A DNA stretch of 62,925 nucleotides, counting the filler, from Reticulomyxa filosa (taxonomy: Eukaryota; Protista; Foraminifera): the NCBI GenBank assembly GCA_000512085.1. It is 20 parts of 20 records of this genome, joined end to end, with 100 filler letters (N's around TTAATTAATTAA, not from the genome) between each part and the next. Parts side by side here need not be neighbours in the genome. Positions count along the whole stretch, not along the records: positions 38,505 to 47,879 come from ASPP01004828.1; 19 more parts are not named here. The stretch is one strand, 5' to 3'. The notes beneath the pieces are model-generated. The model searched no databases and was not told the DNA's origin. It was given only the letters and a program-made list of their open reading frames with translations. Both the position numbers and the translations under genes were made by a program. Shown in pieces: positions 2,889-42,795 of this stretch (its first letter is position 1; every line of letters begins with the position of its first letter).

Positions 2889-4559
2889 TTCCCGCAGGAG
2901 TTTCGCCAACTGGGCCGACATGTCATAGCGGCTACGTTCTTCATTTCCAATTTCGCACTCCTGAACGAAGTCGGTTACTTCGACATGGAGGCACATACAA
3001 AGCCACTACTCCATTTATGGTCCCTGGCCATTGAAGAGCAGTTTATCTTTTCTGGCCGCTCTTTGCCTGGGCCACGCGGAACCGACGACGTCTTTCGTGA
3101 CAGGAACTCTGGCCATCACGATAGGCTCTTTTGCCCTAAGCACTACCTCCGCCGACAATTCAGTAGCCTTCTATTCACCGTTTACCCGAGCGTGGGAACT
3201 GACCGCAGGTGTCTTGATAGCGCACTTGCCACGCCAAGCACTGGCGAATTGGCTTACGGCTCCTATCGTACGCCATGCTGCCAGCATGATCGGACTTGGT
3301 GCAATTATCTCAGCCGGATTGGTCACCGACGCCCGATCATTCCCCGGGTACTGGCCATTGTTGCCGGTGCTTGGAGCGGCATTGGTAATTGTAAGCGGGC
3401 CCCATACCCTTGCGAATTCGTATCTGCTTGCTTCCCGGCCGATGACTTGGATCGGAAAGATTTCCTACCCGTTGACCTTTGGCACTGGCCGTTGTTTTCC
3501 TACGCTTGGCTGGCTTATGGAGCCAAGCCGCCCGTGGATGTGCGGCTCGTCCTATTAGCCGCAAGCGTGCTGCTTGCGTGGCTAACCTACACACTCGTTG
3601 AAAAGCCTATCCGCTTCGGAGTTGTTCGCTCATATCCTGTGCCCACTCTGAGCATTGCCATGTTGTTGCTAGGGACCACAGGCGTCGCCGTATTAAGTTG
3701 GCATGGTTTGCCGGAGCGTAGAGTCGCAAAAATCAACCAGTCTCTTGCTTACGATCTACGTGTCCCAACTGATAGCAGGACCTCAGATGGCACCTGTGCG
3801 ATGAGATATGGCATCGAAACGGGTGACACGTATGTTTGCTTCGCGAACTCGCCAGATCCTCGAATGCTCGTCATTGGCGACAGCGTTTCCATGGCGTTCT
3901 ATTCTGGAATTCATGCAAATCTCGTAGAAGAGAGGGCGGTTTTCGTTGGCGCCCACAGCTTCAATTGGGCTCGCTCCGACTGCATAAGTCCGGGCAATCT
4001 CGAAAAATGGATGGCAGGTGGGGAAGTTTGTCAGCGCGTTGTACGCAGCGCCTTCGAAATCCTAGCACGCGAACCCTCGATTGAGGTCGTCGTCGTCCCT
4101 ACCTACTCACGCAATCCCTTCTTTACAGATGAAACAGCGCTCGCAAGTTTCCAGCAGGACGTTCAAGCCCTTGGTAAGAGCGTCGTTTACGTGATGTCCG
4201 TTCCGCAGTTTGGCAATCCACCAGGAGGCTGTCATCCCAGACGCCTCTTTGTGTGGGGATTCGATGTTACTCGTCCTGGCAATGACTATTCCTGTCGCCA
4301 GTTGCGATCGCAACTCGAGCCCGACCTCCTGCGGCAGCGTGACCTTTTCCTGAAGATGAGCAGGGCATACCCCAATACATTTGCATTCGATGCTTTCGAG
4401 CCCTTCTGCGACAGGCTGGAATGCAATCAGTCCGATGAGAGCGGACCCCTATATTGGTCGTGGGCGCACATCAACGAGCGAGGTAGCAGCCTTGTCTTGC
4501 ACGTATTCCTGCCTTGGCTGCACAAGGCGATTTTGCCTCAACTACCGCGCCCGCACTAA
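2889..4559 (+). CDS. Bacterial acyltransferase family 3 (OafA/OatA-like O-acetyltransferase) with C-terminal SGNH domain; 5'-truncated, three apparent 1-nt deletions (~3043, ~3094, ~3474)
   Basis: Motifs 'GYFD...KPLLHLWSLAIEEQF', 'PFTRAWEL', 'IGKISYPL[Y]LWHWP', 'TYTLVEKPIR', SGNH block I 'IGDS' and C-terminal 'AHINERGS'. GC-rich and intronless. Confidence 0.9.
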   Translation, partial: FPQEFRQLGRHVIAATFFISNFALLNEVGYFDMEAHTKPLLHLWSLAIEEQFIFSGRSLPGPRGTDDVFRDRNSGHHDRLFCPKHYLRRQFSSLLFTVYPSVGTDRRCLDSALATPSTGELAYGSYRTPCCQHDRTWCNYLSRIGHRRPIIPRVLAIVAGAWSGIGNCKRAPYPCEFVSACFPADDLDRKDFLPVDLWHWPLFSYAWLAYGAKPPVDVRLVLLAASVLLAWLTYTLVEKPIRFGVVRSYPVPTLSIAMLLLGTTGVAVLSWHGLPERRVAKINQSLAYDLRVPTDSRTSDGTCAMRYGIETGDTYVCFANSPDPRMLVIGDSVSMAFYSGIHANLVEERAVFVGAHSFNWARSDCISPGNLEKWMAGGEVCQRVVRSAFEILAREPSIEVVVVPTYSRNPFFTDETALASFQQDVQALGKSVVYVMSVPQFGNPPGGCHPRRLFVWGFDVTRPGNDYSCRQLRSQLEPDLLRQRDLFLKMSRAYPNTFAFDAFEPFCDRLECNQSDESGPLYWSWAHINERGSSLVLHVFLPWLHKAILPQLPRPH

Positions 4560-5184
4560 CGGGCGAAAAGCCATTTCAGCATTGACACAGGCGTAGACTT
4601 ACCTCGCCCTAAAGCAGCCCTTAGCTCCTCGTTCTCACGAACCAACTCTGCCATCTCCGCCGTAAGCCGTTTGAGGGACAAAACCTCTGGATGGCGGTCA
4701 TTAGAAGTCATCGGCGATGGTAGTAGTGAGCGTTGCTCACCGCTATAACGAGACCACGCTTCGGGCGTTACAAAAACGTCACCATTCCAATGCGCAGGAC
4801 TCTGAGAGCCAACCCAAGCCGGCGCGAAACAGATATGTACTGTCTTCCGCACTCGCTCCATGACGTTTGGATAGCCGCCATGGCGCAGATTCTCGGTGAA
4901 AAACAATGCATCACCCGCTTCCATAGGCAACGGCACCATTCCTGGCTCATGGAGAGGATCGTTCCCGTAAGGAGATTGGAAGTTTGACTTGTGCGACCCT
5001 GGCACAACGCAAAGTGGTCCGTTCTCTAAAGGCACGTCATGAAGAGCATAGAGGACCCGCACTGAGAGAAGGTCGAAATGCCGGCTGGCTTTACCATCTG
5101 GATCCGGCGTTGGGTCAGTTACAAATGTGTATCGATTCCGGCGATCAATCGGCCCGCCCATATGGGTGCCGGTGATGTTGCCGC
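4556..5184 (-). CDS. Bacterial phytanoyl-CoA dioxygenase (PhyH)-family Fe(II)/2-oxoglutarate enzyme, 5'-truncated, with C-terminal coiled coil
   Basis: 'YALHDVPLENGPLCVVPGSHK', 'AGDALFFTENLRHGG' and downstream Arg 'RKTV'. The frame is open to the contig edge (GNITGTHMGGP). Convergent with the acyltransferase, 3' ends overlapping by 4 nt. Confidence 0.88.
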
Positions 5185-37279: not shown

Positions 37280-37389
37280 TTTTTTCTGTAAAACTACACG
37301 CCGCAACAGGCCGGCAATGGCAAGACCAGCGTGATATCTGCTAATATCGCGCGGTTTTCCAGCCAATTCCGATAAAGAACACGGTCGCG

Positions 37390-38361
37390 ATGACTTCTAC
37401 CCCGCACTTCCGCACGCTTGTAGCCGGCGACATGAACACGGTCGATCAGGCCATCCGCCAGCGCCTGCACTCCGATGTTGTCCTGATCCGCCAGGTAGCC
37501 GAGTACATCATCTCGGCCGGCGGCAAACGCCTGCGTCCGATGCTGACGCTGCTGGCCGGCCGCGCGCTGGGTTACGGCGACAAGCACCTGTTCGAGCTGG
37601 CTGCGATGATCGAATTCATCCATACCGCCACCCTGCTGCACGACGACGTGGTGGACGAGTCCGACATGCGCCGTGGCCGCCAGACCGCCAACGCGCTGTT
37701 CGGCAACGCCGCCAGCGTACTGGTAGGCGACTTCCTGTACACCCGCGCCTTCCAGATGATGGTGTCCACCGGCAGCATGCGCATCCTGGAAGTGATGGCC
37801 GACGCCACCAACATCATCGCCGAAGGCGAGGTGCTGCAGCTGCTGAACATCGGCAACGTGGACGTCAGCGAAGACGACTACCTGAAAGTGATCCAGTACA
37901 AGACCGCCAAGCTGTTCGAGGCCGCTACCCGCGTCGGCGCCATCATCGCCGCCGCCACGCCGGAGCAAGAGCAAGCGCTGGCCGAGTACGGCATGCACCT
38001 GGGCACCGCCTTCCAGATCATCGACGACGTACTGGATTACAGCGGCGACGCCGCCACCATCGGCAAGAGCCTGGGTGACGACCTGGCCGAAGGCAAGCCC
38101 ACGCTGCCGCTGATTTACACCATGCGCCAAGGCCCGGCCGACGCCGCCACCGTGGTACGCGAAGCGCTGGAAGCGGCCAACCGCGAGCGTTTCAATGACG
38201 TGCTGGCTGCGGTACAATCCTGCGGCGCGCTGGACTACGCCCGTCACGAAGCCGAAAAAGCCGCCGAACGCGCGGTGGCCGTGCTGGCCCCGCTGCCCGA
38301 CAGCGAGCACAAGGCGGCGCTGGTGGAAATCGCCCGCCTGTCGGTAGCGCGCAACGCCTGA
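37390..38361 (+). CDS. ispB: Octaprenyl/polyprenyl diphosphate synthase
   Basis: 'GGKRLRP', FARM 'LLHDDVVD...RRG', SARM 'FQIIDDVLD'. Classic divergent position next to rplU in proteobacteria. Confidence 0.96.
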
Positions 38362-38732
38362 CCAGGCAACGTTTTTCTGGCTGTCCCTGTAGTTAAATGG
38401 ATATNNNNNNNNNNNNNNNNNNNNNNNNNNNNNNNNNNNNNNNNNNNNTTAATTAATTAANNNNNNNNNNNNNNNNNNNNNNNNNNNNNNNNNNNNNNNN
38501 NNNNTAGTTAACAAGGAGAAGCACATTACACGCTAGTTTTTTTTTTTTTTTTTTTTTTTGCATGAAGAGTGAGGACATAAAACGTATACGTTTTATTTTT
38601 GTTTTTATTTGAGTAAGATATTTATGCAAATTGTATATAAATATGTGTAGGTATATTGAGATATACCTACACATAAACGAACATATATATATATATATAT
38701 ATATATGTATATGTATTTTGTTGTTGTTAAAG

Positions 38733-40199
38733 ACTTAGGACAAGTAGTAGCATGCTGTACAACAGTAATTGCGATTGATGTAATAATAATCCTTCGACTG
38801 ATGTTTACAATATTGTCATTTGTCGATTTGTGGTATATCCAAAGAGAAATAAAAGTACATTTGTTAATAACAACGGTGACGTGGCTGGTGTGTGTCCCTG
38901 CAGTCTGTCTCGCACAGACGTATGGGTCGGGTCACAAGGGTACGATTCAAGGCCAGCCGGATTCGGATATATTGTGGAATAACTACAATGTTGTAACAGT
39001 AATCATTCAATTGTCATTAATTGCGATGATGTTCACAAGTGGTGTTTTGGTCATTCGTTGGAATGAGTCGCGTTTTTATGTGATTAGACAAAGACTTCTC
39101 ACCATCTCACAACTTCCGAATTCCTCCGCATCGGCCATTTCCATGTCCACTCCTATGAGTCCCGACGTTGTAGACGCTCCTTTTCCTGAAAGACTGACAT
39201 CTTCCGAAATATTGGTCAATGGCTCATCTAGCATTAACAATCCAAATGACCCTACCATCTCCGAAGACAAGGCTAATGCTCTTCTCGCACATGCTAGCAC
39301 CGAAGCCAAAAAAACACCTGCTACTATTGATGTAAATAAAGCGCCCTTGCTCAATTTATTAGAAAATGCAAAAGGCTATGAAGCTTTCATGATCCATTTA
39401 ACCCGAGAATTTAGTATTGGTTTGTATATATGTGTGCGTGTGTAATGTATACAAATATATATACATACATATACATATTATGTACTTTTTTTTAAATGTA
39501 TGTATACGTGCATGTATGTGCATATCCTTTTTATAACCACTTGTAACTTGCGTGTTTTATACTTTAGAAAATCTGCTGCTGTTAACTGAACTAGCACAAC
39601 TTCAAGAAATTTTAATCGAGTTTGAATATTTGGAGAAACATGAGCCCGAATTTCACTTGACAAACATTCGGATCCCGAAAAATATCGATATTCCACTCTC
39701 GCCATCATTGGTCAGATTGCGCACTGTTCTGTCGTCTGAAAATTGCAGTAGTTCAAATCCAAATCGCTATAATTTGTTGTTTCCCGCTTGGGTATACATT
39801 TATAAGAAATATATTGATGGAAAAAATGCTCCTTATATGGTGAACCTTTCTTCAGTAGTGAGGGTAGAAGTAACCCGTTTTTATAATTGCATTGACAAGT
39901 GGATGTCACAGTCCGCACCAAATCGACGCACTATTTTTAAAAGGTTCCACGGATTATCTGAAGCGGTGATTATCATCAACAGAGAAAAAAACGAAGAGAA
40001 AAAGGAACCACAATTGCCTCGTCCACAAGATAACAAAAATGATGCACGGCCGTGGTTCGAGAGTGAAGGAATGAAAAAAGAGAATTTCTTATTGCTTGTC
40101 AAGGCTGTTCGAAATGCCGCAAAAGAAATTTTTGATTTGATGAAAGACTCTCATACAAGATTTCAATTTCAAAGAGCTGTTGTCGTCACCAAAACTTGA
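38733..40199 (+). CDS. Transmembrane RGS protein (last TM helices plus RGS domain), 5'-truncated; intron ~39420-39567
   Basis: TM helices with 'DLWYIQREIK', then RGS motifs 'LLENAKGYEAFMIHLTREFSI|ENLL', 'IYKKYI...APYMVNLS..VR' and 'AAKEIFDLMKDSHTRF'. Confidence 0.85.
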
Positions 40200-40566: not shown

Positions 40567-42167
40567 TTAAGAAAAACATGCAATTCTAGATTCGTAAATA
40601 TTGTGCATATTAAAAAGTCTGATAATTTCCTTTGGTACTCTTTTTGTCAACAATCGGCCAGTTTGTGACGAGACATATTGTGACACAGTTGAGGGTCCCA
40701 TCGTGTGCCGTGTAGAAGCAATTTTTTTGTAGTTAAATAGTCGTTTGAGTTGCTGAATAATACATCCTCGAGCTACTGCAATTGCAAGCATAACAGCTAA
40801 CACAACCACGAAAGAAATAGCAACAACTGCGCTCTTCTTGGAAGGAGGCCGATGGTGTGGATAAGAAGGCCCATACGTATTGTATAGACCAGCCGAAAGT
40901 TCAATATGTTGTGGAGTACTTCCGTCCTTGGGAATGATCAGTTGTCCGTACAATGAATCGCAGCCAGTCGATTGATTGACTTCCATTACATAGACATGCG
41001 ATCGATCTACGTTTTGACCTTCTAAATCGCTGTCATCAAATGCTTCTGAGCTCAAGGCCAATTTCATTATGGTGCCAAAGTTGTCATTGAATATTTCTAC
41101 TTGATGTGACCAGTCCATATCATACAATCTTCGCAAAAAGGGATGTTCCAAAAGAAAAAAAGCAAATGTTATTATTTTATTAACTTCAAAAAAAAAAAAA
41201 AAAAAAAACAAAACCAAACTCTTGGAAATCTCGGTCGTGTTGAGTTAAATGTCTTCGGAAAAAATCAGCCCAATAAAATTCGAAAAAAGGCTTGTTATCA
41301 ACTTTTTCCCACCGGCACTGGAGGCATTGCAAATAGAAAACACATCCATGCCAGCGACACCACATTTGATATAACCGTGAGCATCACGAATGTACTCAGA
41401 CAAACTACGAAAAGGATCATCAGTCAGCGATTGCATGTTATTTGGTAAGTCATACCAAGACATCGACTCACCATGACGATCTTCTAACCAGGCATAGCCA
41501 TTGTTTACCAAATAAGCCCAAAATTCACTTTGGGATAGCATACGTAAGTCTTCGATCACACAAATTTTCAACCAGCGATAGTTGCTAAAGCGAGTGTCCC
41601 CTGGGAAGGCGTCAATTATTGCTCTTGCCAAATGATGATGATCGGTTAAGTAAATATCCCATTCATGACCCCAACTTGGTGCTATGATTGCTGGCGCTTT
41701 GTTATTTTTTTTTTTTTTTGTGTATGCGTGTGTATTCCATTGGATAACCAATAACCTTCCTTTTTTTAAATACAACGGGGAACATATAATATACCGGGAT
41801 TGTCGAGTAGATAGTTTACTAACCATTGACTTCCGTGGAGAAATTTGCTTTGGATAATTTCTGTTTTACAGTTCAGCAAAGAGTAACCAATTGCGGACTG
41901 CGTTGGCAATAAGTCACGCGCATTTGCGATACACGCGCTTCCCATCGGCACATACCCGTACTGACTAAGCAGTTTTGGAATCACTACATTGCACCATGAC
42001 TCCTTACTTGTGTAATCTAAGTCCACTTGTGCGCATTGCACCAAAGGGGTAACTTGGGTGTTATTTAGATGATTTTTATGGAAAGGGAAAGGTGAAGCGC
42101 CTGAGGAGGCATTGGAAAGCAAACAATGAAATGCAAATACCAGAAAAGTAACCAAAGCGCGCATCAT
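40567..42167 (-). CDS. Signal peptide + ParB-like nuclease (ParBc_2/Srx-like) domain + TM helix; 3 exons, 1-nt frameshift at 41303-41307
   Basis: 'LLPTQSAIG', 'YLTDHHHLARA', 'DLRMLSQSEFW', 'LPNNMQSLTDDPFRSL...GYIK', and after the shift 'PFFEFYWADFFR' and 'LALSSEA'. N-terminal 'MMRALVTFLVFAFHCLLSNASS', TM 'AVVAISFVVVLAVMLAIAV'. Introns 41697-41794 and ~41130-41218. Confidence 0.82.
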
Positions 42168-42795
42168 CACAGACAAGAGTTTTTTCACGTGATTTTCTTG
42201 GACCTTTTTCTGTCCGAACGTTTTTAAAAAATTTTCTAAAATACTCTTGAGTGTATCCTTCATTAATTATTTTATTTTTAAAAATTTATTTAGCTAATTT
42301 TTTGGTGGCAAAATAACAATCATTTTAAATCCTTTCTTAATTGGATTTGTTTTAAAAAAAAAGGATACATTTATATTCTTGTGAAAGCAGTTTTCATAAA
42401 ACATTTTTATGCACTATTAGCTTGTCACAATTTAATGACGCTATTTGTTCTTAGCTGCAGAAAATCCACTAACAAAGCGTATTTACCAAAAACTTAAAAA
42501 AACGCACTAAACACAATGATATGTCTACAAAACCAACAACTATAAACACACTTTAAAATTACTTTTTTGAATGGAACAGTATTCCCTCGCCTTACCCACT
42601 CCAACAATAACCCTTTTTAAACAATTTGCATTTTGTTGTTACAATGAAAATGCTACATGTATTTTCAAGAAACTGTCCGAAGAACAAAAAAAGTGACCTT
42701 TTTACATTTCAAGCTGAATCGTTGTTATTTTATTTGCTTCGACGCTTGAAAGACATTCAACAATCCATTCTGTAAATTCTGTATTGCAGCGATAC

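Follow-up and report, generated by a model that had tools for sequence, protein, structure and literature searches.

The window analysed here is a 62,925-nucleotide stretch of DNA from the foraminiferan Reticulomyxa filosa (GenBank assembly GCA_000512085.1), in which 20 contigs are joined by N spacers. The gene under study is read from the minus strand of a 9,375-bp contig (window 38505-47879) and encodes a protein with a ParBc_2 domain (PF08857), a predicted signal peptide and a predicted C-terminal transmembrane (TM) helix. The family annotation of this locus is not new: the deposited protein of the same locus, identified by homology search (ETO31589.1 / UniProt X6P0I4, 550 amino acids, aa), already has the NCBI name "putative ParB-like nuclease", which carries no information on topology. 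Comparison with relatives suggests that this gene belongs to an overlooked, probably secreted ParBc_2 branch that bacteria and several protists have in common.

Gene structure and domain content

Three exons (42167-41795, 41696-41220 and 41128-40567), read with an X at an A5 run, give a stop-free chain of 470 residues. The features of the locus, all on the minus strand, are as follows, with the basis of each in brackets where one applies.

42261..42263, minus: alternative in-frame upstream ATG, which would add 32 residues ahead of the hydrophobic leader (open frame)
41795..42167, minus: exon 1, with the leader, Cys45, Cys59, Cys79, Cys100 and the PTQ motif (41906-41898) (translation, conservation)
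42102..42167, minus: predicted signal peptide, aa 1 to ~22 (hydropathy only)
41697..41794, minus: intron 1, GT-AG, 98 nt, guanine-cytosine content (GC) 0.28 (splice sites, profile score)
41220..41696, minus: exon 2, with the core ParBc_2 domain including DHHH, DDPFRSL, GYIKC, the Cys loop and PFFEFYWADFFR (Pfam)
41632..41643, minus: DHHH motif, aa 143-146, in the putative register of Box II GxxR but lacking its Gly and Arg (D 98%, H145 99%, H146 100% conserved)
41303..41307, minus: A5 run, one base short of frame (read-through in P0002, profile score)
41129..41219, minus: intron 2, GT-AG, 91 nt, GC 0.22 (splice sites, profile score)
40567..41128, minus: exon 3, with the domain end (to ~aa 351, including Cys340), a short linker, the TM helix, the tail and the stop
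40771..40830, minus: TM helix, aa 384-403 (hydropathy 3.1; helix in the structure model)
40570..40770, minus: basic 67-residue tail with one YxxPhi-type motif (aa 417-420)

Both GT-AG introns proposed in a first-pass annotation of this DNA are retained. Against a profile of 33 relatives, which is used for all model comparisons here, the form of intron 1 given above scores 252 bits versus 236 for the shorter NCBI form; the part of the intron that NCBI retains has a predicted local distance difference test score (pLDDT) of ~51 in the P0001 model. The acceptor of intron 2 is a near tie, with 252.1 bits versus 248.4 for a 31-nt alternative (41214-41184). As assembled, the spliced frame stops at codon 275. 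A one-base slip in the A5 run is favoured as the cause because RFI_33556 (P0002), from a separate 596-bp R. filosa contig, crosses the slip in a single frame (151 of 152 residues equal the model and the remaining one is the X), because the two-Cys loop at the slip is kept in P0004, the closest relative (43% over 341 residues), and because this reading scores 252 bits versus 231 for the 59-nt "intron" with which NCBI bridges the slip. That third intron (GC 0.51) was rejected; it removes the conserved loop and lowers the profile score. The slip is thus very likely to be a homopolymer assembly error, as first proposed. A real frameshift that makes this copy a null allele or pseudogene would account for the stop at codon 275, but there is very little chance of it: the second contig encodes these 152 residues without a change of frame, no motif is disrupted on either side and the affected run is a homopolymer. 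The deposited model (window 40567-42300) appears to be wrong at its N-terminus, at both introns and at the slip; compared with the revised model it is extended at the N-terminus, retains part of each intron and removes the conserved Cys loop by splicing. An open frame reaching the upstream ATG is expected in 2.5% of composition-matched random draws, and in the relatives P0004, P0040 (Bolivina argentea) and P0042 the hydrophobic leader forms the N-terminus.

Pfam assigns ParBc_2 to the exon-2 frame alone with 80 bits (E 2.8e-22; gathering cut-off 23.6 bits), P0001 scores 112.5 bits, and the PFFEFYWADFFR frame on its own scores weakly (E 0.017). The PTQ, DxHH, DDPxR, GYxK and ExxW motifs are all present in the window protein, as PTQ (41906-41898), DHHH (41643-41632), DDPFRSL, GYIK and PFFEFYW, which bears out the motif series read in the first pass. 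The predicted fold is that of Atu1540 from Agrobacterium (PDB 2HWJ), the only significant match in PDB sequence searches; NCBIfam gave no family for any of nine proteins. Pfam found only ParBc_2 in the window protein, with no helix-turn-helix (HTH), C-terminal dimerisation or DNA-binding domain, and the leader, domain, linker, TM helix and tail account for the whole chain. Scanning of 27 longer or odd relatives revealed no informative domain fusions apart from tandem ParBc_2 copies and weak matches; P0033, P0034, P0043 and P0051 have two or three tandem copies, with DGHH replacing DHHH in three of these proteins.

The gene is host-encoded, as previously claimed, because it has two AT-rich GT-AG introns and because RRM and TFIIB genes, confirmed with Pfam, occur on the same contig; contamination as its source is rejected on the same grounds. 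An RGS gene had also been listed among the host neighbours, but Pfam did not detect RGS on the separate exons and its assignment comes from motif inspection only. The gene concerned (window 38660-40199, plus strand) encodes a hydrophobic N-terminal region, and an intron near 39.42-39.56 kb interrupts its RGS-like motif. Elsewhere in the window, a separate contig (36514-38404, GC 0.59) with an intronless polyprenyl synthetase open reading frame (ORF) at 37345-38361 (Pfam E 1.2e-81) is probably a bacterial contaminant in the assembly, and contig 2889-5184 is likewise GC-rich (GC 0.545).

Predicted topology and relatives of the protein

The N-terminal leader has an 11-residue hydropathy maximum of 2.25, consistent with a putative cleaved signal peptide, and a single C-terminal TM helix is followed by basic residues; the same C-terminal arrangement occurs in P0004, P0040 and P0042. 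This agrees with the type I-like architecture recognised in the first-pass annotation. Its stalk shrinks to a short linker, as the folded domain extends to ~aa 351 and includes conserved Cys340. Among the eight ectodomain cysteines, Cys45, 59, 79, 100, 247 and 340 are conserved at 84-100% in 58 Cys-rich bacterial or unnamed alignment rows, Cys236 occurs in 54% of these rows and Cys170 is found only in the eukaryote-containing clade. The ectodomain is likely to be disulfide-bonded, with four probable disulfides. Its predicted orientation places the ParBc_2 domain either at the cell surface or on the lumenal side of a food vacuole or lysosome-related organelle. GYxxPhi motifs occur in the tails of all three anchored clade relatives (shuffle p 0.02-0.09); the tails of the window protein and P0004 do not align. 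No description of a leader, ParBc_2 domain and anchor in one protein was found in the literature searched.

A search of proteins represented at 50% identity returned 532 proteins at E <= 0.001, with 150 listed. Among 20 matches whose source names were looked up, six clusters have a eukaryote name, although transcriptome entries could include prey: Guillardia theta (XP_005827727.1; 476,957-bp scaffold), Amoeba proteus, Jenningsia fusiforme, Ichthyophonus hoferi, a cluster that includes a Bicosta minor protein, and the foraminiferan B. argentea. A 52-member ESM Atlas cluster is 63% eukaryotic. Scanning of GTDB genomes produced 232 related stretches, of which 80 were kept and 77 ORFs recovered. 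By a hydropathy rule only, signal-peptide-like leaders occur in 47 of these 77 bacterial ORFs and C-terminal TM helices in none. The Guillardia, Amoeba, Jenningsia and Ichthyophonus proteins have leaders and no anchor, as does a fifth protist case from the Bicosta-holding cluster with a weaker leader score (1.6). C-terminal TM helices occur in only five of 228 proteins (the window protein, P0004, P0040, P0042 and the distant P0136), four of which fall in the foraminiferan-containing clade. Secretion and most of the disulfides therefore appear to be older than the foraminiferan lineage because leaders and cysteines already occur in bacterial and protist relatives. This does not support the initial view that a cytosolic bacterial domain was rebuilt for secretion in the Reticulomyxa lineage. 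The C-terminal anchor seems to be a local addition that is close to lineage-specific, nearly confined to the foraminiferan-containing clade.

P0001-P0003, P0044 and sequences shorter than 195 aa were left out before alignment; from 228 proteins, three with too little of the domain and 29 near-duplicates were dropped to leave 196 rows. Trees were calculated for a hand-chosen 76-row subset (IQ-TREE) and for a 41-row subset. In the 76-row tree, a single clade (Shimodaira-Hasegawa-like approximate likelihood ratio test, SH-aLRT, 96) unites the window protein with P0004, P0040, P0042 and P0107. A surrounding 27-row clade (SH-aLRT 95) contains all named eukaryotes and no named bacterium and is nested in a Cys-rich group (SH-aLRT 96). 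The bacterial affinity originally proposed is supported. A single eukaryotic origin is not secure because the Bicosta-cluster pair moves among bacterial lipoprotein-like rows in the 41-row tree (92). A constraint that unites the four anchored proteins with the eight nearest bacterial-type rows is only marginally rejected (approximately unbiased test, p-AU 0.0485), which makes a foraminiferan-specific transfer only mildly disfavoured. Ancient inheritance with losses and spread between protists are not told apart by the tree, which fits either. A possible history is that the secreted Cys-rich branch arose in bacteria, reached protists once or a few times and would then have gained its C-terminal anchor in the foraminiferan-containing clade.

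A metagenome scan with the closest relatives gave 13 loci whose best segments are 23-38% identical and, thus, no further close relative. Giant viruses were considered as a donor and rejected because the giant-virus-like contigs carry only a short leaderless form closest to bacterial rows. In three viral, AT-rich contigs of 100-548 kb that are giant-virus-like by size and gene content, this short gene (L164:4941-5564, L165:4974-5549, L166:4956-5606) lies near an alanine dehydrogenase or mitochondrial carrier gene. Two Bdellovibrionota loci (L146:1696-4665, L147:1535-4480) encode leader-bearing proteins of ~985 aa with repeated Cys-containing beta-type modules that end in a DGHH-type ParBc_2 domain, with an apparently degenerate copy ahead of it.

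Conserved residues, distribution and candidate function

Residues Q90, D143, H145, H146, D218, R221, R228, K235, E264 and W267 are 89-100% conserved over the 196 rows and are intact in the window protein. When DHHHL is compared with Box II GxxR, in a register inferred from six DGHH/NGHH variants and a conserved Ala at +7 and not from residue-level structural alignment, Arg at position 5 occurs in 0/196 rows and Gly at position 2 in 6/196. The searched parts of a ToxB preprint describe this arginine as needed for adenosine triphosphate (ATP) hydrolysis (bioRxiv 10.64898/2026.05.05.722872). A canonical ParB-type nucleoside triphosphate (NTP) switch is unlikely because the arginine is absent from all aligned relatives, which weakens the NTPase or nucleotide-switch function suggested in the first pass. 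The wider alternative, a canonical NTP-hydrolysing switch or an ecto-NTPase, is highly improbable given the same arginine requirement in ToxB, the lack of an HTH domain and the absence of the ParA motif KGG[VT]GK[TS] from 170 bacterial and viral loci (1.21 Mb, flanks 1.5-6 kb).

We tentatively favour a phosphate-releasing hydrolase that works in a lumen or at the cell surface, and rate this at somewhat below an even chance. The ParBc_2 protein, held by its one membrane helix, would be a metal-dependent enzyme that releases phosphate from polyphosphate, pyrophosphate or nucleotides. Asp143, His145/His146 and Gln90 would coordinate metal and water in the phosphate site of the ParB/Srx fold, and a second lobe (Arg221, Arg228, Lys235, Glu264 and Trp267) would supply the phosphate-binding charges that GxxR gives in ParB.

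Distribution provides the leading hint to a substrate. PF08857 occurs in 36 of 40 genomes of the genus Accumulibacter, which the searched parts of one paper treat as a model polyphosphate accumulator (PMC11361876). A sample of its family has 11 positive genomes among 251, five of the 11 being genus members, which leaves six of at most 246 others. Polyphosphate is the leading substrate hint because of this difference, and polyphosphate or pyrophosphate is our leading guess. Accumulibacter often has two PF08857 copies, one leaderless and one with a leader (L016; G001:C1:3106158-3106658, 3812418-3812858). Prevalence elsewhere is 6/401 and 3/400 in two proteobacterial classes, 20/56 in Magnetococcales and 19/121 in the family of L044. 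Foraminifera store polyphosphate in probable acidocalcisomes, according to the searched parts of PMC11864969. A broader proposal, that PF08857 is an unrecognised polyphosphate-processing class on the ParB/Srx fold with its secreted Cys-rich branch in the periplasm of polyphosphate accumulators such as Accumulibacter and an anchored form in foraminiferal acidocalcisome-like stores or food vacuoles, is speculative and rather unlikely. Literature searches found nothing that joins PF08857 and Accumulibacter, and the searched parts of Accumulibacter paper supplements contain no PF08857 entry. If polyphosphate activity is real, it would give a function to a gene that is nearly core in Accumulibacter and provide foraminiferal phosphate storage with a candidate enzyme; on the broader proposal, one enzyme family would tie wastewater phosphorus removal to marine benthic phosphorus storage.

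Several points weigh against a hydrolase with this substrate and placement. The literature searched contains no measured activity for any PF08857 member, and the searched parts of PMC11864969 give no phosphate measurement for R. filosa. The family pattern is not specific to polyphosphate storers because predatory Bdellovibrionota often carry PF08857 (56/201) and the genus of "Ca. Dechloromonas phosphorivorans" rarely does (7/121); moreover, all groups used for prevalence were picked after matches had been seen, and kin within them are not independent. Most ParBc_2 neighbourhoods are unrelated to phosphate. With regard to topology, the start at the leader Met is putative in view of the upstream ATG at 42263, the signal peptide and its cleavage are predicted from hydropathy, and the tail of the window protein has YxxPhi without the preceding Gly, a motif no commoner than chance would give (p 0.65).

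No conserved operon was found around the ParBc_2 loci. SulP occurs within 9 of the 170 loci and overlaps the ParBc_2 gene on plasmids of Ensifer and Sphingomonas, one of these loci also having an adjacent CHAD gene; four other plasmid loci that were examined have no SulP. Short ParBc_2 genes adjoin or overlap SulP anion-transporter genes in Ensifer, Sphingomonas and Aquirhabdus (L081:2391-4585, L082:749-4582, L066:3744-6035), and some of these loci have a CHAD or inorganic pyrophosphatase gene nearby. CorA and MgtC occur in five loci each, mostly from one lineage. In one genome, RNase T2 (leader), DNase II (leader), ParBc_2 and DUF2235 genes are co-oriented (L142:3363-7155).

The run of RNase T2, DNase II and ParBc_2 genes at this last locus, from a betaproteobacterial family and with spacings of 12-18 bp, is among the reasons to consider a digestive role, either as a nuclease or in the processing of nucleic-acid ends (3'-nucleotidase or cyclic phosphodiesterase), alongside acid nucleases that act on prey DNA and RNA. 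The Pfam name, the frequency of the family in predatory Bdellovibrionota, its presence in several phagotrophic protists and a His-rich site that suits a phosphodiesterase are also consistent with this. However, the run occurs in one genome only, its ParBc_2 protein is leaderless though both nucleases have leaders, Pfam detects no DNA-binding domain and the family name itself says "putative"; we regard a digestive role as unlikely, if worth keeping in view. A non-catalytic binder or receptor of a phosphorylated ligand, with signalling or sorting via the tail, would explain the family-wide lack of the GxxR arginine. It would also suit the anchored proteins P0040 and P0042, which have lost the motif Asp (NHQH and NHHH), lie on a long branch, have tails that end in GYGxPhi and are possibly inactive, vacuole-sorted paralogues. 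Yet every conserved polar residue is kept in the window protein and P0004, the tail has no recognised domain and does not align between the two, and most relatives are soluble, which makes a pure binder improbable.

Comparison with known ParB/Srx proteins

The ParB/Srx fold is described either as a module that binds nucleotides inside the cell or as a delivered toxin; its main eukaryotic member is sulfiredoxin. Sulfiredoxin, SerK and SbnI are intracellular and keep the Box II arginine, and sequence searches detected no similarity between them and the window protein. A small-molecule phosphotransferase like SerK or SbnI, which would take phosphate from adenosine diphosphate (ADP), ATP or polyphosphate within the secretory lumen, is a doubtful alternative to hydrolysis, to which we give little weight. 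The main text of a 2025 survey of the ParB fold, based on PF02195, does not contain "signal peptide", "secret" or "transmembrane". A resident extracytoplasmic branch without the GxxR arginine, spread across bacteria and several protist supergroups and anchored in foraminifera, would, if true, place the fold in a compartment new to it and probably extend its chemistry. In contrast to the ParB-CTPase fold (PF02195: ParB, Noc, KorB and ToxB), the window protein lacks GxxR, the HTH and the dimerisation domain, and the bacterial and viral loci of its PF08857 relatives lack the ParA motif. Atu1540, with 205 aa, a domain that starts at residue 4 and no known function, is the structural counterpart; the window protein has a leader, a Cys loop and four probable disulfides in addition, and continues after the domain with a C-terminal extension, TM helix and tail.
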